Below, piece after piece: positions 1,166 through 15,705 of a stretch of DNA of 16,206 nucleotides. Each line of letters opens with the position of its first letter. Within the stretch, counting starts at the first letter, position 1. Below the pieces are notes generated by a model. It was not told the DNA's origin. It worked only from the letters and a program-made list of their open reading frames with translations, and did not search any database. The stretch spans positions 1-16,206 of the forward strand of contig JAVYWK010000035.1 of the NCBI GenBank assembly GCA_038727095.1, in the 5' to 3' direction. The stretch is from Thermofilaceae archaeon (GTDB lineage: Archaea; Thermoproteota; Thermoprotei; Thermofilales; Thermofilaceae). Both the position numbers and the translations under genes were made by a program.

Positions 1166-1702
1166 TCACTTGACCCTCTCCGCTCTCCTGCGGGTCTTAC
1201 GGCGCCTACTCTTCAGCGCCTTGCGACCGAAGCACGCGGCTAGCGCGGCCACCACGAGGCCCACGGCTGGGAAAGCCCACGCTGGAGCGGGCTCCTTCTC
1301 CGCGTAGATCTTGATCGAGGCGAACGAGGGGTCAGCGTTGTCCGCGAAGGCTGTGGCGACAACCGTCCCTGTCCCATCCCTGCACCTCATTGGCACGAGC
1401 ACCCTCTTCGCGGCCCCTACAGTCACGTTGCCGAGCGTTAGCGACAGATTCGACCTCCAAACGCCCCTCTCGTCGAGGAGCTCGGCGCACCCCGTCGCTG
1501 CGAGGGTGAGATGGACGTTTTCAGCCGGGGCTGCTCCAAGGTTTCTTACGACGAGAAGTATCGAGCCCGGCCTGCTCGAGGTGAGGTTGACTTGCGCGCT
1601 CGCCGGCTCAACGATTATGACAGTTAAATCCGTCGGCTGCGCTAAAGTGATGATGATGAGCGCGGGGATTACGAGCGTGAACGGTGCGCAGCGCACGCGC
1701 AT
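1166..1702 (-). CDS. Secreted, C-terminally membrane-anchored protein with an Ig/CARDB-like beta domain
   Basis: N-terminal hydrophobic signal, VRNLGAAPAENVHLTL CARDB-like strand pattern, NxS/T sequons, C-terminal TM helix and Arg/Lys tail. The spacing of the TATA TTTTTAA (1718-1724) favours GTG 1696 as the start. Confidence 0.7.
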   Translation of the reverse strand: MRVRCAPFTLVIPALIIITLAQPTDLTVIIVEPASAQVNLTSSRPGSILLVVRNLGAAPAENVHLTLAATGCAELLDERGVWRSNLSLTLGNVTVGAAKRVLVPMRCRDGTGTVVATAFADNADPSFASIKIYAEKEPAPAWAFPAVGLVVAALAACFGRKALKSRRRKTRRRAERVK

Positions 1703-1822: not shown

Positions 1823-2674
1823 CTAGTAGGTGCCCAATCGCCCCGTCGCCTTCAAGCGGTTCTCCACGAGCTTTACCGCAGAGATGCCCAGAGCGAGCAG
1901 CAAAGCGGTGTAAGAGATTAGGACAACGAACTCGAGGGTTAAGGGGAGCAGCGTTGGAGTAGCCATGCTGTAGTGCCTCAGAAGGTCGATCGAGTAGGTG
2001 AAGGGGAGGGCGAGAGCCGCGACCCTGGCGCTCTCTGGCAGAGCGGTTACGGGGAAGAAAGCGCCGCTTAGCCCGAGTATGATGAACTGTAGGATGTTGT
2101 TTAGGGGGCCTACCTGCTTGAAGCGTAGGACGAGGGCGCCGTAGAGGAGGCCGAAACCCATCGCGGTGAAGAGGCCGATGAGGAGGCTCAAGGCGACCCC
2201 AACCGGGTTAATTACGACGACTTTGACGTTGAAGAGAAGAGTGAAGAAGGCGTACACGTAGGTTAGCGAGAGTGCGAGCGAGACGATGCGGCTGAAGATG
2301 TCCCTGGAGAAGAGGATCGCCCTGCTGGCGTTCGTGAGCATGAGGAACTCTAGCGTACCCATCTGCTGCTCCCGCCTTATGGCGTTTCCGAAGTTCCAGA
2401 GGCCGGCGCTGACGATATCCCAGAAGATCCACCCCCAGAACAGCATCGTCAGCGTCTGGGGGTTGCTCCACTGCTCACGGGGCAGGAAGAGCAGGATGGG
2501 TAGGATGAAGAGAACGAGCCAAGCCGGCGTCGTCACAATGTCCGCGACGAGCCAAGCCGGGTACCTCAGGTAGATCCTCACGCTGACTGAGGCTGCGGCT
2601 TGAAGCTCCTGCAAAAGCGACCGGAGCGGGATGCGGCTAGTACTTGGAGAGCTCCCCCCTCTTCTTAGCTGCAT
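1823..2674 (-). CDS. ABC-2 type transporter permease
   Basis: About 6 TM segments, REQQMGTLE and SGAFFPVTALP ABC-2 signatures. Overlaps the upstream permease. Confidence 0.9.
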   Translation of the reverse strand: MQLRRGGSSPSTSRIPLRSLLQELQAAASVSVRIYLRYPAWLVADIVTTPAWLVLFILPILLFLPREQWSNPQTLTMLFWGWIFWDIVSAGLWNFGNAIRREQQMGTLEFLMLTNASRAILFSRDIFSRIVSLALSLTYVYAFFTLLFNVKVVVINPVGVALSLLIGLFTAMGFGLLYGALVLRFKQVGPLNNILQFIILGLSGAFFPVTALPESARVAALALPFTYSIDLLRHYSMATPTLLPLTLEFVVLISYTALLLALGISAVKLVENRLKATGRLGTY

Positions 2675-3479
2675 ACTCCCACCTCAAGTAGAACGCTCGA
2701 CCCACAGCGAGGTACGCTAGCCCGAGAGCGAACATCACGGCCAGCCTCTCCCAGAGGTTGAGGCTCGAGGCTGTGCCGGTGAACAGGCTCCTCAGCAGCT
2801 GGGCTGCGTGAGAAGTGGGGAGGAACTGGGAGGCGAGCCTCACAGCCATCGGGAAGACCTCGAGCGGGTAGTAGAAGCCCGAGAGCATCGCAACGAAGGC
2901 GTTAACCGAGCTGGCCACAGCCCACACCTCCTTGAACCTGACGGTGAGGGCGGCGACCACTAGGCCGAGGCCCGCCAGGGGGAGTAGGCCGAGCAGCGTG
3001 ATGCCGGCCGCGATCAACCAGTCTACAGGGGAGGGGAGCGAGGTTCTCAGGGCTAGGACGGCGATCACGTTCACGGCCATTACCCCGAGCGTGATCAGGG
3101 CGGACGAGAGCGAGTGGAAGAGCCACAGCAGGATCGTGTTGTTGGGGGTGAGGTAGTGCAGCTCGAAAGTACCCATCATCTGTTCTTCACGTATTATGCC
3201 CGAGGTGTTCTCGATTAGAACCATGCAGCCGATCATTAGCACTCCACCCAGCACGGTGTAGAGCAGCGGGTCCTCAACCCCCGTGTTTGACGCGAAGTTC
3301 CTCGGGGCCGAGGGGCCAGCGATCGCGTAGCCGATCCCCATCATCATGCCGCTGAACATGAAGGGTAGCGAGGCCATCATCACCAGGAAGCCGATGTATC
3401 TGGACGTTATTTTCATCTCCTTCACTACGACTGCGGCCAACGTCTGAAGCGCTCGTCTAGCTTTCCTCAAGCCTCTCAC
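2637..3479 (-). CDS. ABC-2 type transporter permease
   Basis: REEQMMGTFE and SGFYYPLEVFP signatures, multi-TM. Alternative start TTG at 3470. Confidence 0.9.
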   Translation of the reverse strand: MRGLRKARRALQTLAAVVVKEMKITSRYIGFLVMMASLPFMFSGMMMGIGYAIAGPSAPRNFASNTGVEDPLLYTVLGGVLMIGCMVLIENTSGIIREEQMMGTFELHYLTPNNTILLWLFHSLSSALITLGVMAVNVIAVLALRTSLPSPVDWLIAAGITLLGLLPLAGLGLVVAALTVRFKEVWAVASSVNAFVAMLSGFYYPLEVFPMAVRLASQFLPTSHAAQLLRSLFTGTASSLNLWERLAVMFALGLAYLAVGRAFYLRWEYAAKKRGELSKY

Positions 3480-4452
3480 CCGTCAAGGCGACGAACACGT
3501 CCTCTAGGCTGGGCTCCAGGTTCCTGATGGAGAGAACCTTAACGTCCGCCGTGAAGAGGGGGGAGAGGATTTCCCGGAGACTGTCGCTGTAGACCACCTT
3601 GACCTCTGCCACACCCGCTACGGGGTCTCGAATCCTCGTTGCAACTCCCACGACGCCGGGTACTTCCCTAAGCTTAGACAGAAGCCCATCTTCGAAGCCA
3701 ACGAGCGTAACTTCAACAACCTTGTGCTGCGCCATCTTCGACTTCAGATCGTTCGGCGTACCGACTGCTATGATCCTCCCCCGGCTGATGATGGCAACCC
3801 GATCGCAGAGCGCGTCGGCTTCGAACATGTTGTGCGTAGTGAGAAGGATCGTCTTCCCCTCGCGCTTCAACTCCAGGATAACCTCCCTCACTTTCCTCGC
3901 CGAGTTAGGGTCGAGCCCTATCGTTGGTTCATCAAGGAAGAGGATCGGAGGGTCGTGCAGCAAGGCCCTCGCGATGTTGAGCTTCGACTTCATGCCCGTA
4001 CTATACTCCTCCACCAACCTGTCCGCGTCCTCGCTCAGGTCAAGGAGCTCGAGGAGCTGGTCGATCTTACGCCTCGCGTACCGCTCGTCCAGGTGGTGCA
4101 AGCGGGCGAAGTAGAGGAGGTTCTCCCGGCCTGTCAGCTTCCAGTAGAAGCCCCTATCGCTGTAGAGGCTGACCCCTATCACCTCCCTCACCCTCGGAGC
4201 TTCCCTCACCACGTGGAAGCCCCCGACCCACGCTTCGCCCGAGTCGGGTAGCAGGAGCGTGCTCAGTATCTTAATAGTGGTCGTTTTGCCGGCGCCGTTG
4301 GGGCCCAGTAAGCCGAAGATCTCCCCCTTCCTGACCTCGAAGGACACATCTTTGAGCGCTTCAACGATCTTCCTCCTCCCGCGGAAGAGCACTCCTCCCT
4401 CTCTCGTGACGAAAGTTTTCCGGAGTTCAACGGCTTTGATAGCAGCGTCCAC
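3457..4452 (-). CDS. ABC transporter ATP-binding protein (DrrA/CcmA-like)
   Basis: Walker A GPNGAGKTT, signature YSTGM, Walker B ILFLDEPT, H-loop TTH, C-terminal PSLEDVFVALTG. Confidence 0.95.
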   Translation of the reverse strand: MDAAIKAVELRKTFVTREGGVLFRGRRKIVEALKDVSFEVRKGEIFGLLGPNGAGKTTTIKILSTLLLPDSGEAWVGGFHVVREAPRVREVIGVSLYSDRGFYWKLTGRENLLYFARLHHLDERYARRKIDQLLELLDLSEDADRLVEEYSTGMKSKLNIARALLHDPPILFLDEPTIGLDPNSARKVREVILELKREGKTILLTTHNMFEADALCDRVAIISRGRIIAVGTPNDLKSKMAQHKVVEVTLVGFEDGLLSKLREVPGVVGVATRIRDPVAGVAEVKVVYSDSLREILSPLFTADVKVLSIRNLEPSLEDVFVALTGERLEES

Positions 4453-4596: not shown

Positions 4597-6669
4597 GTGC
4601 TGCTGCTCGCTCTCTTGCTGATCGCCTTGCTGGCGTCACCCGCGATGGTCTACTCCCGCCCGCTGGCTCCACCAACCCTTCAGCTGGTGGAGGTAGACGG
4701 GGTGCTTGTGCCCTTGCAGAACGGTGTCGTTTACCCGACCTTCGCTTTCCAGCCCTCCCGCAGGTACATCGATCTGGGGGGCGAGTGGGAGATCCTCTAC
4801 GATGAGGAGGGGGGTGAGGCAAAGTTCGGCGGTGTAAGGCTCTCGCTGGCGCCGAGAACGGGTGGGGTGCTTCAGCTGCTCGAGCAGCAGATGAGGGCGG
4901 CCCTGGCTAGGGGCGGCTGGATGAGAACGCGAGTCCCCTCGTGCAATAACGCGAGGGGCTCCGCAAGGGAGGGGTACCAGGGGGTTGCATGGTACCGGAG
5001 GGTCTTCGAGGTCGCCGGCGGTCAGCTGGAGGGGCGCGCGAGGGTATTCCTGGTCTTCCACGGGGTCAACTACGTGGCCGACGTCTGGCTGAACGGCGTG
5101 TATCTGGGCTACCACGAGGGCGGCTTCACGCCCTTCCTGTTCGATGCTACACGCGCGCTTAAGCCCGGGTTGAACGAGCTCGTCGTCCGGGTCGATAACG
5201 TGCCCTGGGACTCGCCCGACTCCCGCTTCCTCACGGTCCCCTACGCGAAGTGCGACTGGTGGAACTACGGTGGCATCTACCGGGAGGTCTACATAGAGAT
5301 CGTGAACTCCACGTACATCGCCCGGCTCGATCTGATAGCCGAGAGAGGTTCGGGTTGGACTCTCAGGGCCCGGGCCACGATCGTGAGCAACGGAGCCCGT
5401 AGGGCGACGCTCAAGCTCGCGCTCTACCCGGCCAACGCGGCGGGGCGGCTCGAGTGGAGCCCAGCCCTCGTGGCCGATCGCTCAGCACCGCTGGCTGAAC
5501 TAGCCCGGGAGGTCGAGCTGCGGGCAGGGATCAGCGTTTTCGAAGTCCGCCTGGACGGCCTAGAGGTCTCTGAGTGGAGCCCCGAGAACCCCCGCCTCCA
5601 CGTCGTGGGCGCCCAATTGGTTGTGGACGGCTTGGTTCTGGACGAGCTCTACGACCAGTTCGGCTTTAGAACAGTCGGTGTCAGTGGGGGTAGGATCACG
5701 ATCAACGGGGAACCCGTCTTCCTGAGGGGTGTGGCCAGGCACGAGGACCACCCCGCCTACGGAAGATCGATGCTACCAGAGCTGATCTACGGGGACCTCG
5801 TCATCGTGAAGGAGGTGGGGGCGAACTTCCTTAGGACAGCCCACTACCCGAACCACCCGCTCACCTACGTGTACGCGGATCGGCTTGGCCTCCTGGTCTG
5901 GGAGGAGATACCGGTCTACTGGTTCGACTGCGCGGGCTTCCGGGTAGTAATGGAGAGGGGCGTTGCGGAGCAGATGCTGCTGGAGATGATCTTCAGAGAC
6001 TTCAACCGACCCTCGATCATCATCTGGAGCTTCGCGAACGAGTGCGCCTGCAGAGAGGAGCGCGTCGCCTACCTGAGGAGGATGAGGGAGCTGGCGAAGA
6101 GGATCGATCCCACCCGGCTCCTCACCCAGGCGGTGCGGTGGGACCCGACAGACGACACCTCGCTGAGAGCCGGGCTCGACGTGCTGGCGGTCAACATGTA
6201 CTTCGGCGTCTTCTACGGGAGGATCGAGGACCTGGACGGGGCGATACAGGAGCATCGGAGTAGGTACCCAAGCCTTCCCCTCTTGATCAGCGAGTTCGGC
6301 TACTGGTCTGGAGGCGGCGTGGGCGAGGCTGGGCAGTTGGAGTACTTCATTAAAGCATGGAGGATTATCAGGTCGAGGGCCGGGGAACTGGCTGGCGCCG
6401 TCTGGTGGACCATCTTCGACTACGACAGCATGATCGTGTTCAACACGTTCGGCGCGCTCGACTGGCACCGTACCCACCGCAAGCTGCTGTACCAGGGGCT
6501 TCGAGAGGCCTACCACGCCCCTCTCGAGCCGGAAGCTCGAGGGCAATGGGTTCCGCAGCTTTTCGCCGCGCTGATCGCAGCCTCCCTACTCGCTCTCGTT
6601 GCCGCCCGCAGGTTTCGTAAAGCATCTGAAAAAGGCATCGCTCAGAATCCCCGCGGCTCCGGTGCGTAA
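4597..6669 (+). CDS. Extracellular membrane-anchored glycoside hydrolase family 2 (beta-galactosidase/glucuronidase-like)
   Basis: HEGGFTPF, DWWNYGGIYR, RGVARHED, RTAHYP, acid/base WSFANE and nucleophile ISEFG. Signal peptide, C-terminal TM and basic tail. Confidence 0.92.
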   Translation: MLLLALLLIALLASPAMVYSRPLAPPTLQLVEVDGVLVPLQNGVVYPTFAFQPSRRYIDLGGEWEILYDEEGGEAKFGGVRLSLAPRTGGVLQLLEQQMRAALARGGWMRTRVPSCNNARGSAREGYQGVAWYRRVFEVAGGQLEGRARVFLVFHGVNYVADVWLNGVYLGYHEGGFTPFLFDATRALKPGLNELVVRVDNVPWDSPDSRFLTVPYAKCDWWNYGGIYREVYIEIVNSTYIARLDLIAERGSGWTLRARATIVSNGARRATLKLALYPANAAGRLEWSPALVADRSAPLAELAREVELRAGISVFEVRLDGLEVSEWSPENPRLHVVGAQLVVDGLVLDELYDQFGFRTVGVSGGRITINGEPVFLRGVARHEDHPAYGRSMLPELIYGDLVIVKEVGANFLRTAHYPNHPLTYVYADRLGLLVWEEIPVYWFDCAGFRVVMERGVAEQMLLEMIFRDFNRPSIIIWSFANECACREERVAYLRRMRELAKRIDPTRLLTQAVRWDPTDDTSLRAGLDVLAVNMYFGVFYGRIEDLDGAIQEHRSRYPSLPLLISEFGYWSGGGVGEAGQLEYFIKAWRIIRSRAGELAGAVWWTIFDYDSMIVFNTFGALDWHRTHRKLLYQGLREAYHAPLEPEARGQWVPQLFAALIAASLLALVAARRFRKASEKGIAQNPRGSGA

Positions 6670-6798
6670 GTCAGCTTTTCAACATGAACTTCCAAGAGTC
6701 TATGAAGTGTCGGGATGATTGTGCGAGTTGCGGTTTTTGCACTCATGGTAGTCTACTAACGGTCTTAAGCTCGAGCATGGACTCGCAAACGGTAAGTT

Positions 6799-7770
6799 GT
6801 GACCGAGGAGGATTCGTCGAGTAAACTGGTCGAGCGATCAACACCCTTAATTAGGAGCAGAGTTCTCGCCCGCTTCCTCGGCTTCGACGGGAAGCCCCTC
6901 TACTTCAAGTGGGAGGGCGCGAACCCAACCGGTACGCACAAGGATAGAGCGGCTCTCGCTCACGTACTCTCAGCGCTCGAGAGGGGGATGGAGGTTGTAA
7001 CGGTCGGCACCTGCGGGAACTACGGCGTGGCTCTCGCGTACTACGCGCGCCAGTTCGGCCTCTCAGCGGTGATCTACGTACCGGCGGGCTACGAGAACAG
7101 CAGGATCGATGAGATGAGAAGGCTGGGAGCAAAGGTTGTGCTCGTCGAGGGGGGCTACGAGGAGGCGGTTGAAGCGAGCGTTAGAGCGGCAGCGAGTAAC
7201 GGGTGGTACGACGCGAACCCGGGTAGCGTCAACAACGAACTGAGCCTCGAAGCCTACTCGAACATCGCGAGCGAAATCGTGAGGCAGTTGGGCGACGCGC
7301 CTTACGCCGTTGCGGTCCCGGTGGGCAACGGGACGACGCTCGCCGGCCTCTACAGGGGTTTCCTAAGGATGTACAGGGAGGGCTACGCGACCGGCATCCC
7401 CCGGCTCATCGCTGCAACCACTTCTCACGCCAACCAGCTCGCGCTGATCTGGAGGAGGGAAGCTACCCTGGATGAGCCGGTTCAAGTAAGGGAGACGTGG
7501 ATCAACGAGCCGCTGGCGGCAGCTAAAGCCCTCGACGCCGTGGAAGCCCTCGAAGCTCTCCGCTCCACGAGGGGCGCGGTCTACACGTTCAGCGACGAGG
7601 AGATGCTGGAGGCAGCCATGCTGATGAGAGCCCTCGAGAGGCTCCCCGCGCTCCCAGCCTCCGCCTCGTCCCTGCTTGCTCTTAACAAGTTGAAAAGCGA
7701 GGAGCTCGAGGGACCGGTAGTGGCTGTGGTGACCGGCAGGTGGATGAACGGCCGAAAGCTGTCATACTAG
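6799..7770 (+). CDS. PLP-dependent fold-type II enzyme, threonine-synthase-like but probably not ThrC
   Basis: KWEGANPTGTHKDR (PLP lysine), GTCGNYG and PVGNGTT. Lacks the NSxN..R.EGQKT substrate-phosphate segment of true ThrC. Confidence 0.85.
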   Translation: MTEEDSSSKLVERSTPLIRSRVLARFLGFDGKPLYFKWEGANPTGTHKDRAALAHVLSALERGMEVVTVGTCGNYGVALAYYARQFGLSAVIYVPAGYENSRIDEMRRLGAKVVLVEGGYEEAVEASVRAAASNGWYDANPGSVNNELSLEAYSNIASEIVRQLGDAPYAVAVPVGNGTTLAGLYRGFLRMYREGYATGIPRLIAATTSHANQLALIWRREATLDEPVQVRETWINEPLAAAKALDAVEALEALRSTRGAVYTFSDEEMLEAAMLMRALERLPALPASASSLLALNKLKSEELEGPVVAVVTGRWMNGRKLSY

Positions 7771-8804
7771 CGGAGGGCTCGTACGCGACCACCGACGCTA
7801 AGACGGCCCACGGCCTGGTGAGGAGGAGCGAGCGCTACAGGATCGTCGGCGTCATCGATAGCAGGCTCGCCGGCCGGGACGCTGGGGAGGTTCTCGACGG
7901 AAAACGCCGGGGCATCAAGATCTACACGTCGCTCGAGGAGGCGCTAGGGGAACACCCCGACGTGAGGTACCTGATAATCGGTGTTGCAACCACGGGGGGA
8001 GTACTACCTCCGGGCTACAGGGAGACGGTGAAAGCGGCGCTCAAGAGAGGGATCAGCGTCGTCTCCGGCCTCCACGAGTTCCTCAGCGACGACCCTGAGC
8101 TTGCTCAGATCGCTCGCTCCACAGGCGCGGAGATCATAGACGTCCGCAAGCTCTTCTACGGCATGCGCATCCACTACAGCGGTAGAATAAGGGAGGTGAA
8201 GGCGCTGAAGATCGTGGTGGCGGGGACGGACTCCGCCGTGGGTAAGCGGACGACCGCCTGGATGATCGCTGACGAGCTGAACAGGCGCAGCGTTAAAACG
8301 GTCTTCATCGGGACGGGGCAGACCGCGTGGATGCAGGGGGCTAAGTACGCCTTCGTCCTGGACAGCCTGATCAACGACTTCATTCCAGGAGTCCTCGAAG
8401 AAGTCGTCTGGAGGGCGTACGTTGAGGAGCGCCCAAAGGCGATTGTCGTGCCTGGCCAGGGCTCACCCCTCCACCCGGTTTTCCCCGGAACCTTCGAGAT
8501 CCTCAACCTGCTGAAGCCGGAGGTAACGATTCTGCAGCACGCGCCCGCCAGGAAGCACTTTGACGGCTTCCCCGAGTACACCATGCCCCCGCTGGAAGAC
8601 TACCTCAAGCTGCTGGAGATCCTCACCGGGAGGAGCGTCTTCGCGATCACGCTGAACACCGAGGGTTTGACGAGGGAGGAGGCCCTAGCCATCGGGGCGG
8701 AGCTCGAGAGGAAGTACGGCATACCAACCGTCGTGCCCCCAGAGGAGGGAGTTGGCAGGATTGTGGACTTGATCCTGGAGAAGTTCCCCGAGCTGAAGAG
8801 CTAG
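7740..8804 (+). CDS. DUF1611 family protein (DgcN / D-glutamate N-acetyltransferase-like)
   Basis: AKTAHGLVR, IIGVATTGG, VSGLHEFL, GTDSAVGKRTT, TGQTAWMQG, DFIPG and GQGSPLHP match the DUF1611 pattern. 31-nt overlap with the PLP enzyme. Confidence 0.85.
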   Translation: MDERPKAVILAEGSYATTDAKTAHGLVRRSERYRIVGVIDSRLAGRDAGEVLDGKRRGIKIYTSLEEALGEHPDVRYLIIGVATTGGVLPPGYRETVKAALKRGISVVSGLHEFLSDDPELAQIARSTGAEIIDVRKLFYGMRIHYSGRIREVKALKIVVAGTDSAVGKRTTAWMIADELNRRSVKTVFIGTGQTAWMQGAKYAFVLDSLINDFIPGVLEEVVWRAYVEERPKAIVVPGQGSPLHPVFPGTFEILNLLKPEVTILQHAPARKHFDGFPEYTMPPLEDYLKLLEILTGRSVFAITLNTEGLTREEALAIGAELERKYGIPTVVPPEEGVGRIVDLILEKFPELKS

Positions 8805-9550
8805 AGGTTCAACTCGAAGCCGCTGGGAGTTTTCCGGACGATTATCTTCACCTTCCTTACCCCATACTTCACCAGGTTCTCCGCCAAATCGACACCGACT
8901 GAGGCTACGATTAGCGCACCCACGAGCTCGCACTTGGCCTGCTCCAGTATGGAGGAGATCGCCTGGAGGGATTCGAAGTTCCTCGTCACACTCTTCACCA
9001 CCAGGACCTTCGCTCCCTTCTCGAGGGCCTCCCTCGGGATGTGCAGGTAGACCGTCTCGCCCCTCTCGCTCGAACGATAGGAGGCGGTGTACAGCTTCCC
9101 CCAGCTCGCCCAAGCCCTCTCGGTCGCAACGCACGCGTCCGCGCTCAACCAGTCCGCTACTATCGCGGCGAGAGCCGAATCGCGCTCGTTCGTCGCCAGC
9201 ACCAGGTCGACGTTATCCTGCCCGAACGCTTTCCACGCTATGTAGCCGACCAGGTTGAGGAAGCGGGGGTTGAAGAACAGGCGCCACTCCTCCGCTATGC
9301 CCTGGGGCTTTACGACGAGCTCTCTGATCGCACGCTCCAGAAGGTGCTTGCTCTCGATCGCGTCCAGCAGCTTCTTCGCGGTTCCGCGCTCAGGGAACTG
9401 GACGTGACTCGTGTACCTCCACAGGACCTGCGCTGGGACGTCTAGGAGCCCCTCTAGCTCCTTAAAGGTGTAGACCTCCTTCAACCCGCCCAGTAGCCGC
9501 ACAGCGACGTACGAGCTCTCCTTATCCTTATCCCCCGAGTTAGGGGGCAT
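8801..9550 (-). CDS. HTH + phosphoribosyltransferase-fold protein (putative regulator, degenerate PRPP loop)
   Basis: Likely start ATG 9550 with an AGGGAGGG SD. N-terminal YTFKELEGLLDVPAQVLWRY HTH, then a type I PRTase fold (LHIPREALEKGAKVLVV...). Confidence 0.75.
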   Translation of the reverse strand: MPPNSGDKDKESSYVAVRLLGGLKEVYTFKELEGLLDVPAQVLWRYTSHVQFPERGTAKKLLDAIESKHLLERAIRELVVKPQGIAEEWRLFFNPRFLNLVGYIAWKAFGQDNVDLVLATNERDSALAAIVADWLSADACVATERAWASWGKLYTASYRSSERGETVYLHIPREALEKGAKVLVVKSVTRNFESLQAISSILEQAKCELVGALIVASVGVDLAENLVKYGVRKVKIIVRKTPSGFELNL

Positions 9551-9552
9551 TT

Positions 9553-9586
9553 CCCTCCCTGTGTCGGGAGGGGTGCACAATAAATA
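9553..9586. promoter_or_regulatory. Compact divergent promoter with an inverted repeat
   Basis: AATAAATA (9579-9586) lies between ATG 9550 (-) and GTG 9608 (+). Perfect IR CCCTCCC-N6-GGGAGGG at 9553-9572. Confidence 0.5.
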
Positions 9587-9607
9587 CCTTCTGCAAAAAC
9601 GGGGCTC

Positions 9608-10717
9608 GTGATACTCTACGAGTTCGAGGTTAAGCGGATCCTCGAGGAGTATGGAATCCCCACAGAGCGCGCAGTCCTGGTCGGCGAGGCAGACGTGGGG
9701 AGATTCGAGGAGCTGATTTCCTACCTCAAACCCCCCTACGTCGTAAAAGCTCAGGTTCGCGGGTGGGGCAGGGGGAGGATGGGCCTGGTGAGGACCGCGG
9801 GAACGCCCAGCGAGGCTAAGTCGCACGCGCTGCAAATACTCGGTGCAACGTTCAGGGGCGAGAGAGTCAAGCACGTGATGGTCTCAGAGAAGCTCCGCGT
9901 GGTGAGGGAGCTGTACTTGTCCATGATGGTGGGTGGCTCTCCGCCGGGGGTGCTTCTCTTAGCCAGCTCCGCCGGCGGGATCGAGGTGGAGGAGGCTGTG
10001 GGAGGCGTGCTCATGCTGAGGGTGGATCCGCACACGGGCCTCAGGAGCTACCACGTGAGGCGGGTTGCGAAGCAGCTGAACACGCCGGAGAGCGCGATCG
10101 AGCCCATCCTGCGGGGCATGTACAAGGCCCTTTGGGACTACAGCCTCACCCTCCTCGAGCTCAACCCCCTCGCCGAGACTGAGCAGGGGCTCGTTGCAGT
10201 GGATCGCAAGGCCATCGCGGACACCGACTCGGGCAACCCTAGGCTCGCAGAGTTCATCTCCAGGTACGAGGAGGAGCTCGGCCCCCTGCAGCTCGAAGCT
10301 AAGCGGTGGGGTTTCGCCGCGGTGAAGCTCGAGGGGGACGTCGCGGTGGTCGGTAACGGCGCGGGGCTGACGCTGGCCACCTTGGACGCGGTAGCTGAGG
10401 CCGGCGGGAGGCCGGGCCTCTTCCTCGACCTGGGCGGTGGAGCAGCGGCGGAGCGCGTGAAAGCTGCGCTAAAGCTCGTGCTGAGCGAGCCCGGCATCCG
10501 GAAGGTGCTGGTGAACATCGTGGGCGGGATCACGAGGTGCGATGAGGTGGCGAAGGGGGTTGTCGAAGCCCTACGGGAGGCTGGCGGAGAGGGCGTTAAG
10601 CTGGCAGTACGCTTGACCGGTTTCATGGAAGAGGAGGGGAGGAGGATCCTCAGCGAGGCGGGGGTCAAGGCCTTCGGCTCGCTGGAGGGAGCTGTAGGCG
10701 AGGTGGTCGGCCCGTGA
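9608..10717 (+). CDS. sucC: Succinyl-CoA synthetase (NDP-forming) beta subunit
   Basis: LYEFEVK, KAQVRGWGRGR ATP-grasp, ELNPL, GNGAGL, FLDLGGGA and NIVGGITRCD. Confidence 0.92.
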   Translation: MILYEFEVKRILEEYGIPTERAVLVGEADVGRFEELISYLKPPYVVKAQVRGWGRGRMGLVRTAGTPSEAKSHALQILGATFRGERVKHVMVSEKLRVVRELYLSMMVGGSPPGVLLLASSAGGIEVEEAVGGVLMLRVDPHTGLRSYHVRRVAKQLNTPESAIEPILRGMYKALWDYSLTLLELNPLAETEQGLVAVDRKAIADTDSGNPRLAEFISRYEEELGPLQLEAKRWGFAAVKLEGDVAVVGNGAGLTLATLDAVAEAGGRPGLFLDLGGGAAAERVKAALKLVLSEPGIRKVLVNIVGGITRCDEVAKGVVEALREAGGEGVKLAVRLTGFMEEEGRRILSEAGVKAFGSLEGAVGEVVGP

Positions 10718-11601
10718 CGATTCTCGTCGACGAGGGCACGAGGGTCCTCGTGCAGGGGATCACGGGGAGGCAGGGGAGCCTGCACACGGAGGAGATGCTA
10801 CGCTACGGGACGAGGGTCGTGGCCGGAGTTTCGCCCGGCAAGGGGGGTGGGAGGGTGCACGGCGTCCCAGTCTACGATACAGTGGCTGAGGCGGTGGAGG
10901 CCCACCCCGACATCAATGCGTCGATAATCTTCGTCCCGGCGCGCTACGCTCCAGACGCCGTCTATGAGGCGGTTGACGCTGGGATCCCGCTGGTAGTGGT
11001 TATCACGGAGGGGATCCCGGTGCACGAAACCCTCCTCATGGTCAACTACGCCACGCGGCGGGGCTCCACGATCATCGGCCCAAACACGCCGGGCGTGATC
11101 AGCGTTGGGAAGTGCAAGGTGGGGATCATGCCGGGCCACCTCTTCAAGCCCGGGAGGATCGGTATCGTTTCGAGGAGCGGGACGCTCACCTACGAGGTCG
11201 CGTTGAGGCTCGCCGAGGCGGGCTTCGGAGTATCGACCGCCGTCGGGATCGGCGGGGACCCCGTCACTGGGCTCAGCTTCTGGGATGTCTACGAGATGTT
11301 CCAGCGGGATCCCGAAACGGACGCCGTGGTGCTCGTGGGAGAGATCGGTGGAACGAGGGAGGAGGAGCTCGCCAGGGCGTACGCTGTAAGGCGCGGTAAG
11401 CCCGTCGTCGCGTACATAGCCGGCCGCTACGCGCCACCCGGCAGGAGGATGGGTCACGCCGGTGCCATAGCATTCGGCGCCCGGGGTACTTACGAGGGGA
11501 AGGTTGAGGAGCTCTCCCGAGCCGGAGTGCCTGTAGCCGGTAGCTTACGCGAGATCCCAGCGCTACTATCGCGGGTCCTAAGAGAGGCCGGCTCGGGGTA
11601 A
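10714..11601 (+). CDS. sucD: Succinyl-CoA synthetase alpha subunit
   Basis: VQGITG, ITEGIP, IGPNTPG, SRSGTLTYE, GEIGG and phospho-His MGHAGA. GTGA overlap with sucC. Confidence 0.96.
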   Translation: MTILVDEGTRVLVQGITGRQGSLHTEEMLRYGTRVVAGVSPGKGGGRVHGVPVYDTVAEAVEAHPDINASIIFVPARYAPDAVYEAVDAGIPLVVVITEGIPVHETLLMVNYATRRGSTIIGPNTPGVISVGKCKVGIMPGHLFKPGRIGIVSRSGTLTYEVALRLAEAGFGVSTAVGIGGDPVTGLSFWDVYEMFQRDPETDAVVLVGEIGGTREEELARAYAVRRGKPVVAYIAGRYAPPGRRMGHAGAIAFGARGTYEGKVEELSRAGVPVAGSLREIPALLSRVLREAGSG

Positions 11602-11712
11602 ACCGAGGATCGAGCGTAGCGGCTAAACAGCGCTCGTTTGACCGCGGTTAGCCAGCTCGTTGAAGGATTGCTAGGCCGACGGTAGATCTTCGCTCTAGCG
11701 ATCGGCGAGGGG

Positions 11713-12549
11713 TTAGCTGAACCTGGCTAGCAGCTTCGCTAGGGTGAGCTTCCTTAGGCTCGCGAGCTCTGCGGGCTGCTTAACCAAGTGCTTGAAGTTC
11801 TCCTCGAAGGCCGGCTTCTCGACATCGTAGAGCACGCCGAGCGGGATCTTCTCCGCCTCCAAGGCAAGGTTCAAAGCCACCTTGAAGTCCGCGGGGTCGT
11901 GCCCCTCCAGCTTGTACAGCCTTCCCCTGATCTCGCGCCTCACGTCGTAGAAGGTGGGGCAGGGCTGAATGACGTCGATTATCGCGAAGCCCCTGTGGTT
12001 TACGGCGCGCTTAATCAGCTCCTTCAAGTGCTGGACGTCGTCGCTGAAGCCGCGAGCGACGAAAGTCGCCCCGCTAGCCAAGGCTAGCAGAATTGGGTTG
12101 AAGGGCTCCTCCGGGTTTCCGGACGGCGTCGATCTGGTTCTAACACCCTTCGGAGTCGTGGGGCCCGCCTGGCCCGTCGTAAGGGCGAAGATCATGTTGT
12201 TGTGGACGATGACCGCGATACCTACGTTCCTCCGGGCTGCGTGGAGCAGGTGGCTGAGGCCGATCGAGTACGCGTCCCCGTCGCCGGTGTGGACGATAAC
12301 CTTCAGGCTGGGGTTCGCCAGCTTCACGCCGACTGCAACGGGTACCGCCCTCCCGTGTATCGCGTGAAAGGCGTTCACCCCCAGGTACTCCGTCATCCTG
12401 CCGTGGCAGCCGATGCCAGCAACCGCGACCACGCTCTCCGGCTTGAGCCCCAGCTCGGCGAGCGCTGCTCTCACTGCCGCGAGGATGCCGTAGTTCCCGC
12501 AGCCCGGGCACCACTGGGGCCGCCTACCCGTGTCGAAGGCGCTAGCCAC
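11713..12549 (-). CDS. korB: 2-oxoacid:ferredoxin oxidoreductase beta subunit
   Basis: WCPGCGN, GIGC, TPP motif GDGD...HNN, TTGQ and QPCPTF. Likely start GTG 12549 overlapping the korA stop, with a GGGAGG SD. Confidence 0.92.
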   Translation of the reverse strand: MASAFDTGRRPQWCPGCGNYGILAAVRAALAELGLKPESVVAVAGIGCHGRMTEYLGVNAFHAIHGRAVPVAVGVKLANPSLKVIVHTGDGDAYSIGLSHLLHAARRNVGIAVIVHNNMIFALTTGQAGPTTPKGVRTRSTPSGNPEEPFNPILLALASGATFVARGFSDDVQHLKELIKRAVNHRGFAIIDVIQPCPTFYDVRREIRGRLYKLEGHDPADFKVALNLALEAEKIPLGVLYDVEKPAFEENFKHLVKQPAELASLRKLTLAKLLARFS

Positions 12550-14239
12550 CCCTCCCACCCCGCACGAACTCCACGATCTCCTCCGGCTCCAACTGCCTCC
12601 CATCGTAGCGTAGCAGCAGCGAATCGGGCTCCCGCAGCAGGTGCTCCCTCACCAGCGACGCCAGCTGCCCCGTCGCGTTGTTCTCGGCCACCAGCACTCT
12701 GCACCCCTCGAGCTCCCTCCCGAGCGATTGGGCTGGGAAGGGCTCTAGCCAGACGACTTGGACGAGCTTCACCCCCTCCAGCTCCCTCAGGGCCTCCAGC
12801 GCCACCATCTTCGTCGAGCCCCAGACGAGGAGCGCCACCCTACCCGAACCGTACACCTTCACCCCCCTCTCCTCCGCCAGCGCCCTCAGTATCCTGAGCT
12901 TCCTGAACCGCTTCTCCTGCATCCTCCTGACAGTCTCCGGGTCGACGGTGACGAACCCCTCCTCGTCGTGCTCGTTCGCATTCGCGTAGACCCTTGCGCC
13001 CCTCGAGCCGGGGAGCAGCATCGGCGAGACGCCGTCATCTGTCACGCGGTACCTGGCATAGCCCGCTGGTGCCTCACCAACGATGATGGACCCCTCGTCG
13101 GGCTCAACCCTCGGCAGCCCATCAATCGTCCAGTAGCTCTCCCCCAGGTACTTGTCGGTCAGGAGGATGACGGGAACCTGGTAGCGCCATGCAAGGTTCA
13201 GCGCCTCGCAGGTCAGCTGGTAGGCTTCAACTGGATCGCCCGGTGCCAGCACGACGCGCGGGAACTCGCCGTGAGAAGCGTGGATGGCGAACCTCAAGTC
13301 GCCTTGAGCTGTGTGAGTGGGGAGCCCAGTGCTCGGTCCCGCCCGCTGGACGTTCACGACCACGATCGGCGTCTCAGTCATCGCGGCTTCGCCGAGCGCC
13401 TCAGCCATCAGAGAGAAACCGGGGCCTGAGGTTGCGACGACAGCCCTCGCTCCGGCGTACGCGGCTCCCACAGCCATGTTGATGGCCGCTAGCTCGCACT
13501 CGGCTTGAACCACGATCGCTCCAACCTCCTCCTGAACTTCGGCTAAGAAATGGAGGATAGGGGAGGCGGGCGTGATCGGGTAGGCTGCGAAGAAGCTCAT
13601 GCCCCCGGCTAGCGCCCCCAACGCGACGGCCGAGTTGCCGTCTAAGAGCAGACGCCCCCCTCGCGGCTCATACTTGAGCTTGAGGCTGGGTAAGGCTTCA
13701 AGCTTAACCCCCAACTCGTAAGCCATCGTCGCGACTCGCACGTTGAGCTCTGCGAGCCTCTCCCGACCCCTGTAGTAGCTCTTCACCGCCTCGAGAATCG
13801 GCTCCAGCCTCGCACCCATCATCGCTAGGAGGGCGCACAAACCCGCGACGTTCACCGCCACCGGAGGCGCACCAGCCTTTTCCACAACCTCTCGGAGGCC
13901 CAGCGCTACGATGCGCGCGTTGCTGCGAAGCCCCTTTGCCACAGACTCGTCGCAGACGACTACCCCTCCCTCCCCCAATTTCGCTTCGTGAAACCTAATG
14001 GACTCCGCGTCGAGCGCGAGCAGCGCGTCGATCGACCGGCAGTGCGCGTACACGTTTTCGCCCAATCGACCCCTGACGAGAACCCACTGGTGCCCGCCCC
14101 TGATCGTACTAGGGTACTCGTTCGTCGCGAAGGCGCTGTAGCCGTGGTAGAGCAGGGCTCTCGCTGCGATCGCTCCGGTGGCGAACACGCCCGAACCCGC
14201 CGGCCCACCAACCAGGACGGCTAGCTCCTTGGCAGCCAT
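12542..14239 (-). CDS. korA: 2-oxoacid:ferredoxin oxidoreductase alpha subunit (gamma-alpha fusion)
   Basis: GGPAGSG and YPSTIRGG gamma domain, then GNSAVA, YPITP, ATSGPG, QRAGPSTGLPT and NEHDE. Confidence 0.93.
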   Translation of the reverse strand: MAAKELAVLVGGPAGSGVFATGAIAARALLYHGYSAFATNEYPSTIRGGHQWVLVRGRLGENVYAHCRSIDALLALDAESIRFHEAKLGEGGVVVCDESVAKGLRSNARIVALGLREVVEKAGAPPVAVNVAGLCALLAMMGARLEPILEAVKSYYRGRERLAELNVRVATMAYELGVKLEALPSLKLKYEPRGGRLLLDGNSAVALGALAGGMSFFAAYPITPASPILHFLAEVQEEVGAIVVQAECELAAINMAVGAAYAGARAVVATSGPGFSLMAEALGEAAMTETPIVVVNVQRAGPSTGLPTHTAQGDLRFAIHASHGEFPRVVLAPGDPVEAYQLTCEALNLAWRYQVPVILLTDKYLGESYWTIDGLPRVEPDEGSIIVGEAPAGYARYRVTDDGVSPMLLPGSRGARVYANANEHDEEGFVTVDPETVRRMQEKRFRKLRILRALAEERGVKVYGSGRVALLVWGSTKMVALEALRELEGVKLVQVVWLEPFPAQSLGRELEGCRVLVAENNATGQLASLVREHLLREPDSLLLRYDGRQLEPEEIVEFVRGGRGG

Positions 14240-14260
14240 TACGCACGCGGTAGCTCAGAG

Positions 14261-14414
14261 TATGATATTTGTTGCTGCTCAACGCACGAAACACCATCGG
14301 AGCGCGCGTGCAGCCTCCGTTGCGAAACGGGCGATACCGCCAGCCGTCCGTTAAAACTTCATTAACCGGGAGGCAGACCCCCTTGCCGACTCATTAGGCG
14401 TCCACATTTATTTA
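14261..14414. promoter_or_regulatory. Divergent korAB / gdh promoter region
   Basis: AAATATCATA on - (14261-14270) before ATG 14239. TTTATTTA on + (14407-14414), 23-30 nt before GTG 14437. Confidence 0.55.
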
Positions 14415-14436
14415 CCGTTCGCCCCGATCCTCAAGC

Positions 14437-15705
14437 GTGAGCGAAGGCTCCTCACAACTGCTCAGAACCGTGTTAACGACCCTGCGAAGGGGGGTTGAGC
14501 TGGGAGGTTTCCCGGAGCAGTTTTACACCACCCTGAGCAAGCCGGAGAGGGTGGTCATCGTCTCGATACCGGTCCGCATGGACGACAACAGGCTTGAGGT
14601 CTTCGAGGGCTTCAGAGTCCAGCACTGCAGCGCTCTAGGCCCCTACAAGGGCGGGATCCGCTTCCACCCAAACGTCACGCTGGAGGACGATATCGCGCTA
14701 GCGATGCTGATGACTCTGAAGAACTCCCTTGCCGGCCTACCCTACGGGGGTGGGAAAGGGGCTGTTCGGGTGGACCCCCGCAAGCTCACCCGGCGCGAAC
14801 TGGAGATGCTGTCGAGAGGATACGTAAGAGCCCTATACTCCGTTCTCGGCGAGCTTCTCGATATCCCCGGACCCGACTCTGGGACCGATCAGCAAGTGAT
14901 GGCGTGGATGGTCGACGAGTACAGCAGGTTGAAGGGCTATCCCAGCCCCGCCTCCTTCACGGGTAAGCCGGTGGAGCTTGGCGGCGACCCGGCGAGGGTT
15001 TACGCGACCGGCTTCGGGTGCGCCGTAATCACGAAGCTGGCCGCTGAGGAATTCATCGGGACCTCGAAGGGGTTGACGCTGGCCATCCAGGGCTTCGGGA
15101 ACGTGGGCTCCTGGCACGCCTACTGGGCCTCCAAGATGGGCTTCAAGATCGTCGCAATATCCGACATCGGCGGCACGGTGTACGACCCCTCCGGCATCGA
15201 CGTGGAAAAGGCAATGAAGGTCGCGAGGGAGACAGGTACGATCTACAACTACCCCGGTGGCGAGCACTCGAGGGATACGAAGGGGGCTCTCTACGCCGAC
15301 GCCGATATTGTCGCCCCAGACGCGCTCGAGAACCAACTGACGGTCGAGAACGTGCACCTCGTCAAAGCGAAGATCGTGGTGGAGGGCGCCAACGGCCCCA
15401 CCACCCCTGAGGCCGAGAGGATCCTGGCCGAGAGAGGAATCGTCGTGGTCCCGGACATGCTCGCCAACGCGGGTGGAGTTGTTACGAGCTACTTCGAGTG
15501 GGCTCAAAACCTTCAGCGCTGGAGCTGGGGCGAGGAGGAGACGAGGTCCAGGCTGGCAAAACTGATGGAGTCCAACTTCAGGAGGGTGTGCGAGCACTGG
15601 GGGAAGCTGAGGAGCCAGCGCAAGGACGCGTCCATGAGGGATGCGGCTGTCGTGGCCGCGCTGCAGCGCGTGTACGACGCCATGAAGCTTCGCGGCTGGA
15701 TTTAA
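14437..15705 (+). CDS. gdhA: Glutamate dehydrogenase (Glu/Leu/Phe/Val family)
   Basis: GPYKGGIRF, MTLKN, GGGKG, FTGKP, ATGFG, IQGFGNVG, EGANGP and NAGGVVTSYFEW. Confidence 0.93.
   Translation: MSEGSSQLLRTVLTTLRRGVELGGFPEQFYTTLSKPERVVIVSIPVRMDDNRLEVFEGFRVQHCSALGPYKGGIRFHPNVTLEDDIALAMLMTLKNSLAGLPYGGGKGAVRVDPRKLTRRELEMLSRGYVRALYSVLGELLDIPGPDSGTDQQVMAWMVDEYSRLKGYPSPASFTGKPVELGGDPARVYATGFGCAVITKLAAEEFIGTSKGLTLAIQGFGNVGSWHAYWASKMGFKIVAISDIGGTVYDPSGIDVEKAMKVARETGTIYNYPGGEHSRDTKGALYADADIVAPDALENQLTVENVHLVKAKIVVEGANGPTTPEAERILAERGIVVVPDMLANAGGVVTSYFEWAQNLQRWSWGEEETRSRLAKLMESNFRRVCEHWGKLRSQRKDASMRDAAVVAALQRVYDAMKLRGWI

Follow-up and report, generated by a model that had tools for sequence, protein, structure and literature searches.

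The window analysed here, a stretch of 16,206 nucleotides from a Thermofilaceae archaeon, carries eight contiguous genes between positions 6799 and 15705, which are exactly the start of the gene for a PLP enzyme and the stop of gdh. The genes form five transcription units, with two divergent pairs, regulator/sucC and korA/gdh, separated by spacers of 57 bp and 197 bp, respectively, and two convergent pairs, DUF1611/regulator and sucD/korB. The number of genes, the five units, the two divergent pairs and the gene identities had been proposed in a preliminary description of this DNA, and a six-frame list of open reading frames, together with Pfam and NCBIfam scans, confirmed all of them, coordinates included.

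The first gene (6799-7770, forward strand) encodes a threonine-synthase-like enzyme of the PRK06381 family. Like the threonine synthases and PRK06381 enzymes, it is a fold-type II PLP enzyme (PF00291, E 6e-64), passes the model NF004996 ("PRK06381 threonine synthase"; 392 bits, cutoff 266) and keeps the catalytic lysine, which belongs to a GT[HQ]KDR motif and is invariant in an alignment of 18 PLP enzyme sequences. It differs from threonine synthases in failing the thrC model TIGR00260 (107.8 bits, under the cutoff of 167.1), and in being genetically coupled not to threonine-pathway genes, but to DUF1611 and to a third protein of about 470 aa, which we call X473.

Overlapping the PLP gene by 31 nt is the gene for a DUF1611 protein (7740-8804, forward strand; PF07755, PF17396), a putative N-acyltransferase related to DgcN, with a Rossmann-like N domain, a P-loop C domain and the PDB relatives 2g0t, 7xrj and 2obn. 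The DgcN model NF041892 is its sole NCBIfam match (E 5e-46), in line with the earlier statement that DUF1611 includes DgcN. With 157 bits against an equivalog cutoff of 480, the protein is rejected as a DgcN equivalog; all nine clade members tested against this model score 144-171 bits. In a quick tree, it is sister to an Infirmifilum sequence (support 99), and the pair is nested in an archaeal clade where the PLP enzyme and X473 are usual. DgcN is part of the DgcN-DgcA-DgcH route, which breaks down D-glutamate (Yu et al. 2023, as given in passages of PMC12363236 and PMC13759103). The window shares with this route the DUF1611 fold and family (NF041892, PDB 7xrj), but the route needs a racemase and a deacylase, and the window has no racemase/epimerase, deacylase, X473 or MR/MLE gene. 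What also sets the clade apart is its link with a PLP enzyme resembling ThrC and an ATPase resembling MurL, neither of which, to our knowledge, belongs to the Dgc route itself.

The wider distribution of the pair was assessed by a scan with a DUF1611 alignment, which gave 80 loci with DUF1611 as the sole anchor and flanks of up to 10 kb on each side. Searches of these loci with the window proteins (tblastn, E <= 1e-4, no coverage filter) found DUF1611 in all 80, the PLP enzyme in 63, the HTH-PRT protein in three, sucC in two and sucD in one; korA, korB, gdh and MTHFS were detected in none of the 80. By a careful count, the PLP gene adjoins DUF1611 in 62 of the 80 loci (59 of the 74 that have at least 1 kb upstream), and X473 is the third gene in 64 of them (60 of the 72 with at least 1.5 kb downstream). 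A creatininase domain occurs in 17/80 loci and an MR/MLE protein in 23/80. Bacterial cassettes add both, a creatininase-type amidohydrolase and an MR/MLE epimerase, and with a racemase-like gene and an amidohydrolase domain following DUF1611 they resemble the acylate-racemise-deacylate logic of the Dgc route. A small GNAT follows X473 in four loci (L003, L004, L007, L008), a feature of some archaea, and the Thermoplasmata cassette is surrounded by the housekeeping genes LeuRS, CTP synthase, PolD and DTD2. DUF1611 is also present in 25 clusters of 843-871 aa (among 28 long matches), one of which, P0134, matches the X473 profile over residues 379-850 (E 9e-144), and a long gene model of 1762 aa, P0147, contains in order PALP, DUF1611, about 500 aa, Creatininase and MR/MLE. 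The window holds a reduced copy of the cassette, with the PLP and DUF1611 genes only.

As for X473, 48 of its 53 members contain the motif SSGGK[DE]S, and its AlphaFold2 model (pLDDT 90.0) has QatC, Cap9 and QueC as best Foldseek matches (probability 1.0, E 2e-5 to 3e-4). MurL-family clusters make up 28 of the 30 matches in an Atlas feature search (score 0.96). X473 itself does not match the NCBIfam MurL model NF041275, which is reached through intermediates only, at 18-45 bits; 16 of 18 intermediate relatives match it, and hhalign aligns X473 with these relatives at probability 100 (E 2e-42). By profile and predicted structure, X473 has the QueC fold of a putative PP-loop ATPase and is a relative of MurL, an epimerase that depends on ATP. 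MurD2 and MurL constitute an alternative D-Glu route of peptidoglycan synthesis (PMC8788868; PMC5808125), and MurL is described as unidirectional, from L to D (PMC8788868). The adenylation mechanism proposed for MurL fits the PP-loop, QueC-like fold of X473. The cassette differs from the MurD2/MurL route in lacking MurD2 and a peptidoglycan context and in having mostly archaeal hosts.

Downstream of DUF1611, on the reverse strand (8801-9550), lies the candidate HTH-PRT regulator, recognised from alignment, AlphaFold2, Foldseek and a match to NF006328 that falls short of the cutoff (100 bits against 184). Its longest open reading frame (8801-9874) overlaps sucC; a 17-sequence alignment places the real start at the ATG at 9550, for a protein of 249 aa. 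The protein combines an N-terminal helical, HTH-like domain with a PRT-fold domain whose PRPP loop is degenerate. The best Foldseek matches of its model (pLDDT 88.3, pTM 0.86) are XPRT, PurR and APRT (probability 1.0, E 4e-12), and the sequence match to PurR is weak (E 0.002). GfcR and PurR are transcription regulators of the HTH-PRT type (PMC10838023), and with this precedent and the PurR-like PRT fold, the regulatory role suggested earlier is plausible. The candidate shares the PRT fold and the N-terminal helical domain with them, but its PRPP loop reads VLVVKSVTRNFES, without the two aspartates and without the T-x-G-T phosphate loop. We found 33 homologues, all sequences being Thermofilaceae-type and the named minority all Thermofilum or Infirmifilum. 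In all three DUF1611 loci that carry it (L001, L002, L003), the regulator adjoins the cassette; it goes with PLP/DUF1611, not with sucCD.

The remaining five genes encode ordinary enzymes of known chemistry. Succinyl-CoA synthetase is represented by a divergent beta subunit, sucC (9608-10717, forward strand; 293 bits against NF001913, short of its cutoff of 370; closest in the PDB to 3ufx_B, E 4e-65), and, overlapping by 4 nt, its alpha subunit, sucD (10714-11601, forward strand; TIGR01019, 398 bits, cutoff 353). On the reverse strand follow the 2-oxoacid:ferredoxin oxidoreductase genes korB (beta subunit, 11713-12603; TIGR02177, 336 bits, cutoff 262), which probably begins a few codons further downstream than 12603, and korA (alpha subunit with fused gamma domain, 12542-14239; TIGR03710, 569 bits, cutoff 483), with PDB matches to the 2-oxoacid:ferredoxin oxidoreductases 5b48 and 5b46 and to 6n2n over the full length. 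These best models describe general 2-oxoacid:acceptor oxidoreductases, and the name "kor" holds at the level of the family only. The Pfam scan and the best PDB match, 1v9l (540 bits, E 5e-161), identify gdh (14437-15705, forward strand) as glutamate dehydrogenase, as do all 41 PDB entries among the matches listed. Together, the three enzymes take glutamate to succinate and yield ATP and reduced ferredoxin, established biochemistry that had been stated correctly before. Peptide-fermenting archaea such as the Thermococcales ferment glutamate in this way, with glutamate dehydrogenase, 2-oxoglutarate:ferredoxin oxidoreductase and an ADP-forming succinyl-CoA synthetase. The window encodes the same three reactions, with an unambiguous glutamate dehydrogenase and an oxidoreductase of the two-subunit type, a candidate for 2-oxoglutarate by family only; its succinyl-CoA synthetase is of the classical SucCD type and differs in this from the Thermococcus enzyme, which is of the ACS type. 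PMC4463584 lists both KGOR and SCS. Three operons for consecutive steps are unlikely to stand side by side by accident.

Two exact 9-mers, each occurring exactly twice in the window, are common to the region upstream of the PLP operon (6670-6798) and the regulator/sucC spacer (9551-9607). The first, GTGTCGGGA, lies at 6707-6715 and 9561-9569; the second is GTTTTTGCA at 6733-6741 and, as its reverse complement TGCAAAAAC, at 9592-9600. The spacer also contains a TATA-like AATAAATA (9579-9586), and since one 9-mer lies between this box and the sucC start, the shared words leave room for local co-regulation: sucCD could be controlled along with the cassette in this genome. Random segment pairs of the same size shared at least two 9-mers in 56 of 20000 trials, but correction for the 15 region pairs tested leaves a significance of only about 0.04.

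The preliminary description had gone beyond the gene identities, the glutamate-to-succinate chemistry and the kinship to DgcN, all of which stand, and had suggested that the eight genes may be one dedicated pathway: the PLP and DUF1611 proteins would convert D-glutamate or an analogue to L-glutamate or 2-oxoglutarate, and GDH, KOR and SCS would burn the product to succinate and ATP under control of the HTH-PRT regulator. The genes are contiguous, the 9-mers are shared, and the characterised relatives of DUF1611 (DgcN), X473 (MurL) and MR/MLE (models for L-Ala-D/L-Glu epimerase and DgcA) all work at stereocentres of glutamate, which is also what the GDH next door uses. Moreover, in one locus (L028) sucCD follows the cassette at a distance of 4 kb, and the nearest relative (L001, DUF1611 78% identical) has part of sucC inside the 10-kb flank, straight after an MR/MLE gene, but some 9 kb of unrelated genes separate it from the regulator. 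Among the 80 DUF1611-anchored loci, however, linkage to sucCD, kor and gdh is essentially absent; kor and gdh in none of the loci and sucC in two is about what we estimate for chance in 20-kb windows of genomes of about 2 Mb, and Infirmifilum (L002) has no sucCD, kor or gdh within 10 kb. L001, L002 and L003 do not retain the 9-mers, which the sucC promoter of L001 lacks as well, and the korA/gdh spacer yielded no shared motif. With no epimerase or deacylase in the window and a DUF1611 protein that is not a DgcN equivalog, we regard a single catabolic unit as quite unlikely; the adjacency of the triad to PLP/DUF1611/regulator is no more than that of any cluster to its neighbour and is not conserved.

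Still less probable, to the point of being barely credible, is that the PLP enzyme is simply the threonine synthase of the organism, as its PRK06381 name has it, and DUF1611 an unrelated neighbour. The NF004996 score, the best four PDB matches (all threonine synthases, E 1e-28 to 8e-32) and the automatic name of the closest Atlas cluster speak for it; the miss of the curated thrC equivalog, the overlap with DUF1611, their adjacency in Archaea and Bacteria alike, their fusion in P0147 and the absence of other threonine-pathway genes from the Pfam and NCBIfam scans of the window speak against it. A somewhat better, though still small, chance belongs to a biosynthetic rather than catabolic cassette whose product is an amino acid in D or N-acyl form, be it an osmolyte, a signal or the precursor of a cofactor; the two-gene form of the window would make only the N-acyl-L compound. 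ThrC-type enzymes are biosynthetic, and the one-way action of MurL, the housekeeping surroundings in Thermoplasmata and the extra GNAT behind X473 agree with it. The amidohydrolase domain and MR/MLE epimerase of the bacterial cassettes, however, recall the catabolic Dgc route.

We therefore favour, as the probable explanation, two separate modules that lie side by side: the cassette with its regulator, and central metabolism, their juxtaposition being a property of this genome and not a conserved pathway. The first (6670-9607) would be a reduced copy of a full cassette of ThrC-like PLP enzyme, DUF1611 protein and MurL-like PP-loop ATPase, plus a lineage-specific regulator; the second (9608-15705), with sucCD, the two-subunit oxidoreductase and gdh, would convert L-glutamate to succinate with one ATP. 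The mechanism proposed for the uncharacterised PLP/DUF1611 subfamily is modelled on distant relatives. The PLP enzyme may make or convert an amino acid, probably glutamate or a similar acidic one, by beta/gamma replacement or elimination; DUF1611 may then N-acylate it from acyl-CoA, as DgcN does with D-glutamate, and in relatives the N-acylated form may be the substrate for C-alpha inversion by the MurL-like protein (using ATP, via an adenylate) and MR/MLE enzymes. The cassette may work in either direction, salvaging D forms or building a D- or N-acyl product, and the PRT-fold protein may sense a small ligand and control both the cassette and its own promoter. Judged by its gene content across genomes, the PLP/DUF1611 pair is part of a widespread, uncharacterised and putatively amino-acid-modifying cassette with its own regulator.

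The six-frame ORF list, combined with Pfam and NCBIfam scans, bears out the eight genes named in the preliminary description, as well as their arrangement in five transcription units with two divergent pairs. A fold-type II PLP enzyme gene (6799-7770, plus strand) overlaps by 31 nt a DUF1611 gene (7740-8804, plus strand), whose best named relatives are Thermofilum and Infirmifilum proteins (Thermofilaceae, 71-77% identity). The gene of a PRT-like protein, here called the regulator, lies on the minus strand. Its longest ORF (8801-9874) runs over into the sucC coding region, which is an over-extension; homologue alignment and the sequence place its true start codon (ATG) at 9550, for a product of 249 aa. 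The divergent spacer between regulator and sucC measures 57 bp and carries a TATA-like AATAAATA about 25 nt ahead of the sucC GTG. Downstream are sucC (9608-10717, plus strand) and sucD (10714-11601, plus strand), the beta (11713-12603) and alpha (12542-14239) subunit genes of a two-subunit 2-oxoacid:ferredoxin oxidoreductase, both on the minus strand, and gdh (14437-15705, plus strand; PF00208 and PF02812). A 5-formyltetrahydrofolate cyclo-ligase family gene (PF01812, 15755-16204, plus strand), which leaves the window at its end, begins 49 bp past gdh, and because of the shared strand and the short gap the two may be co-transcribed. At the other end of the window are a 178-aa ORF without family match (1166-1702, minus strand) and an ABC-2-type exporter operon (1823-4452, minus strand) with two permeases and a DrrA-like ATPase (TIGR01188, 308 bits, slightly under the cutoff of 312), which is unrelated to the eight genes. 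Rfam and tRNA scans detected no RNA families or tRNAs in the window.

The glutamate dehydrogenase, oxidoreductase and succinyl-CoA synthetase (SCS) half of the region is ordinary, textbook central metabolism. In peptide-fermenting archaea, the conversion of glutamate via 2-oxoglutarate and succinyl-CoA to succinate and ATP is established biochemistry. The identity of the dehydrogenase is confirmed by its best PDB match (1v9l, 540 bits), and all 41 PDB matches listed are glutamate dehydrogenases. Both SCS subunits are present: sucD scores above its NCBIfam cutoff, and the divergent sucC stays below its own (293 bits, cutoff 370), with the SCS beta subunit still its best family and best PDB match. 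The oxidoreductase passes just the general 2-oxoacid:acceptor oxidoreductase models of NCBIfam; 2-oxoglutarate is a candidate substrate. Its PDB relatives are 6n2n and 5b46/5b48, which the depositors name merely “2-oxoacid--ferredoxin oxidoreductase” and which we take to have a broad substrate range. Since only general models match and the protein resembles both 5b46/5b48 and 6n2n, the label “kor” is plausible but provisional.

The preliminary description had tentatively joined all eight genes into a single amino-acid-to-ATP pathway. To compare gene neighborhoods, the window DUF1611 and 11 named homologues were aligned, and the profile was scanned against one genome per species; the scan gave 599 stretches, and the best 80 of 582 confirmed DUF1611 relatives were kept with up to 10 kb of flank per side, a set outside which the named Thermofilum genomes lie. 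With DUF1611 as the sole anchor, tblastn of the window proteins (E <= 1e-4, no coverage filter) matched DUF1611 in 80/80 of these loci, the PLP enzyme in 63, the regulator in three (L001, L002 and L003), sucC in two, sucD and a GH2 glycosidase in one each, and korA, korB, gdh and the cyclo-ligase family gene in none. Linkage of the PLP/DUF1611 pair to the energy genes is thus essentially absent from these relatives. L028, a Thermoplasmatota MAG, has sucCD 4 kb downstream, beyond a ribosome-biogenesis gene and a thermosome gene, and the Infirmifilum locus L002 lacks all five energy genes within 10 kb. In L001, a Thermofilales MAG and the closest relative (DUF1611 78% identical), a 90-residue sucC fragment sits at the extreme edge of the fetched locus, 9 kb past the regulator. 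The roughly 9 kb from regulator to sucC (L001:11878-20723) hold an unknown 462-aa protein, a ClC channel with CBS domains, a GFO/IDH/MocA oxidoreductase, a CN-hydrolase, a xylose-isomerase-like (sugar-isomerase-like) TIM barrel and an MR/MLE gene, the last of which stops 50 bp short of sucC; the stretch was either inserted in L001 or lost from the window. The proposed new catabolic locus does not survive this lack of conserved linkage to the energy genes: the observation was right, and its interpretation as one unified pathway is not supported. The region instead consists of a PLP/DUF1611 cassette in reduced form, accompanied by a regulator of its own, and, beside it, a conventional group of glutamate-oxidation and TCA genes.

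What is conserved is the surrounding of DUF1611 itself. All ORFs of the 80 loci were clustered, followed by a careful tblastn count. In 62 of the best 80 of 582 loci (59 of the 74 that have at least 1 kb of upstream flank), as in the window, DUF1611 is immediately preceded by a PLP gene in the same orientation. Directly downstream, 64 of these 80 loci (60 of the 72 whose downstream flank reaches 1.5 kb) carry a gene for a protein of about 470 aa without Pfam family, which we call X473 (e.g. L002:11104-12501). In bacteria, X473 has a C-terminal creatininase-type amidohydrolase domain (17 of the best 80 of 582 loci; PF02633, E 3e-69 in L044) and is followed by an MR/MLE enolase-superfamily gene (23 of the same 80), whose NCBIfam matches, all under their cutoffs, include L-Ala-D/L-Glu epimerase and the N-acetyl-D-Glu racemase DgcA. 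A small GNAT gene follows X473 in L003 (12453-12956), L004 (3902-4501), L007 (2990-3496) and L008 (8700-9200); the GNAT gene of the window (176-901) was considered as its counterpart and rejected, as it is not an orthologue. In 21 Thermoplasmata loci (including L010, L012 and L019), a D-aminoacyl-tRNA deacylase gene (PF04414) lies just upstream of the PLP gene. As the entire neighborhood is syntenic housekeeping (LeuRS, CTP synthase, PolD), this proximity may be inherited gene order only.

The same components also occur as fusions, and X473 in particular is often joined to DUF1611, in proteins of about 855 aa, or to a creatininase domain. A search for longer proteins gave 28 matches, with 25 clusters of 843-871 aa containing DUF1611. 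Residues 379-850 of one of them, P0134, match the X473 profile; from their length and one source name mentioning 7-cyano-7-deazaguanine synthase, the remaining clusters are probably X473 fusions as well. In P0148, DUF1611 is fused with an alanine-racemase N domain. A gene model of 1762 aa from a eukaryote data set, P0147, follows the order of the operon, with PALP, DUF1611, a gap of about 500 aa that matches X473 in size, Creatininase and MR/MLE. As it is a gene model, it may be a genuine fusion or may reflect a bacterial operon that was modelled wrongly. A full-text literature search found no published account of a PLP-DUF1611-X473 cassette.

The window carries the cassette in reduced form. 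Tblastn with 53 X473 and 18 MR/MLE queries found neither gene in the window (best E 0.03), and the downstream X473 gene is missing from L001 too, where the 462-aa ORF adjoining the regulator was rejected as a candidate because it is not an X473 relative. Among cases with adequate flank, only the window and L001 have PLP and DUF1611 without X473 or MR/MLE. A quick maximum-likelihood tree of DUF1611 (72 loci and the window; L001 and seven others were left out because ORF calling had missed their DUF1611 gene) places the window protein as sister to Infirmifilum (support 99), nested in an archaeal clade in which PLP plus X473 is the rule. A GH2 glycosidase gene (4597-6669, plus strand) lies directly upstream of the PLP gene, and L001 has the same gene upstream (L001:5182-7905, 68% identity), with a GlmS-C/GlmD-like SIS-domain protein (L001:7811-8860) between GH2 and the PLP gene. 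These neighbors hint at an amino-sugar context in this lineage.

Several tests bear on the identity of X473. The sequence SSGGK[DE]S, resembling SGGxDS, which we take to be the PP-loop signature, is found in 48 of 53 members, and a Cys cluster is also conserved. The AlphaFold2 model (pLDDT 90.0, pTM 0.90) has the QueC-like PP-loop enzymes QatC, Cap9 and QueC as nearest Foldseek matches (probability 1.0, E 2e-5 to 3e-4). Direct profile searches with X473 gave nothing better than QueC in Pfam and NCBIfam (E 0.025) and TtuA in the PDB (E 0.027, the only match). A profile of 12 X473 proteins retrieved 692 representatives (E <= 1e-3), and 18 full-length-like proteins (443-502 aa, E 1e-20 to 1e-37) from the 150 of these that were listed served as intermediates. 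The NCBIfam MurL model NF041275 is the only or top family for 16 of the 18, at E 6e-12 to 9e-4 and 18-45 bits, with the equivalog cutoff of 700 far above, and hhalign joins X473 to nine intermediates with probability 100 (E 2e-42, 290 columns). Judged by these matches and by the profile alignment, X473 belongs to the MurL superfamily as a distant relative, without being an orthologue of MurL. The latter is described as an ATP-dependent, unidirectional epimerase of the C-terminal glutamate in an N-acylated substrate, and is proposed to work via an acyl-adenylate (PMC8788868).

The window DUF1611 had been connected to DgcN in the preliminary description, and at the level of the family this holds, since the DgcN model (NF041892) is its sole NCBIfam match. 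It does not hold for the protein itself, which scores 157.2 bits against an equivalog cutoff of 480. All nine clade members tested on this model, including those beside MR/MLE alone, score 144-171 bits, which marks the clade as a sister subfamily rather than DgcN. DgcN itself is presented as the gene on which an acylation-dependent “irreversible racemisation” of D-glutamate hinges (PMC12363236). The partners in the DgcN route are a racemase (DgcA, MR/MLE) and a deacetylase; the window DUF1611, in contrast, has no such genomic partnership. The PLP enzyme exceeds the cutoff of NF004996 (PRK06381, “threonine synthase”; 392.3 bits against 266) and misses the thrC equivalog TIGR00260 (107.8 bits against 167.1). 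To our knowledge, the former name goes back to a legacy model, and no tested member underlies it. The nearest solved relatives in the PDB are threonine synthases, and an Atlas search with the enzyme returned just “PALP / threonine synthase”. Its K48, in the motif GTHKDR, is invariant in 18/18 aligned sequences and, from its position in the PALP family, would be the Schiff-base lysine.

The regulator has a narrow distribution. Only 33 homologues were found, all of those with an organism name from Thermofilum or Infirmifilum, and they are called “hypothetical” or “adenine phosphoribosyltransferase”. The AlphaFold2 model (pLDDT 88.3) consists of a helical N-terminal domain and a PRT fold, the latter with XPRT, PurR and APRT as Foldseek matches (probability 1.0, E 4e-12 to 1e-9, about 190 aligned columns, comprising about 190 of the 249 model residues). 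Residues 5-79 form five helices, one of them with a conserved QVLWRY; there was no Pfam HTH match, and these helices are a candidate N-terminal HTH. The PRT fold is thus shared with the PurR/GfcR-type HTH-PRT regulators, whereas the PRPP loop is degenerate. In the window it reads VLVVKSVTRNFES (V-L-V-V-K-S-V-T-R-N-F-E-S), with the family consensus VLVVKGVxRNFES, and the homologue alignment contains neither an acidic pair nor T-x-G-T. By comparison, in the conserved PRPP loop of GfcR and OMPS a pair of acidic residues precedes the T/S-x-G-T phosphate loop (PMC10838023). The degeneracy makes a catalytic role unlikely, and by analogy with GfcR a ligand-sensing role is likely (PMC10838023). The gene is tail-to-tail with DUF1611 in the window and L001, follows X473 in L002, and is divergent from the PLP gene in L003. 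Adjacency to the cassette in all three of the best 80 of 582 loci that carry the regulator, in three arrangements counting the window, is an argument for assigning it to the cassette rather than to sucCD.

Could the regulator nevertheless connect the cassette to sucCD in this organism? The PLP upstream region and the regulator/sucC spacer have two exact 9-mers in common: GTGTCGGGA occurs at 6707-6715 and 9561-9569, and GTTTTTGCA at 6733-6741 with its reverse complement at 9592-9600, and both are found nowhere else in the window. At least two shared 9-mers were seen in 56 of 20000 random same-size segment pairs, which corresponds to about 0.04 after 15 comparisons. Among the 15 pairs that can be formed from the six intergenic regions, this pair alone stands out; 8-mers are shared in 4/15 pairs against a shuffle mean of 3.4, and the korA/gdh spacer shares nothing notable. 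The 9-mers are a possible operator for the PRT-fold regulator. As one of the copies falls in the interval from the TATA-like box to the sucC start, an effect on sucCD expression is possible, although autoregulation is the simpler reading. Phylogenetic footprinting revealed no conserved copies in L001, L002 and L003, with weak look-alikes only in L001, whose sucC promoter is without the word.

The most likely mechanism of the cassette, judged from distant homology only, would be an N-acylation-dependent handling of the stereocenter of glutamate or a similar acid, with the PLP step before or after. A more far-reaching reading combines the cassette with the regulator and the energy genes. It supposes that an undescribed pathway, widespread in Archaea and Bacteria, has left the PLP/DUF1611 pair as its local remnant. 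This pathway would consist of a PLP enzyme resembling ThrC, an acyltransferase resembling DgcN and an ATP-driven epimerase resembling MurL, in some cases joined by a deacylase, GNAT or MR/MLE enzyme, and it would use N-acyl intermediates to invert or install the stereocenter of glutamate or an acid like it. The Thermofilaceae version would have gained a regulator with a degenerate PRT fold and, in this organism, would be wired to sucCD via the shared operator-like 9-mers, so that the cassette product could be fed into glutamate dehydrogenase, the oxidoreductase and SCS for ATP. That all of these elements hold jointly seems rather improbable to us.

The lead is therefore the cassette, not the eight-gene locus. 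It comprises three to five genes, ranges from Thermoplasmata, Thermococcus and Thermofilaceae to Acidobacteriota, Bacteroidota and Myxococcota, and is fused in some proteins. Its nearest characterized relatives are DgcN, MurL and dipeptide or N-acetyl-Glu epimerases. All three act on the chirality of glutamate, which makes the cassette a concrete candidate for the handling of D-amino acids in archaea that lack peptidoglycan. It offers a testable function for DUF1611, for a large family mis-annotated as “threonine synthase”, and for a new branch of PRT-fold regulators.
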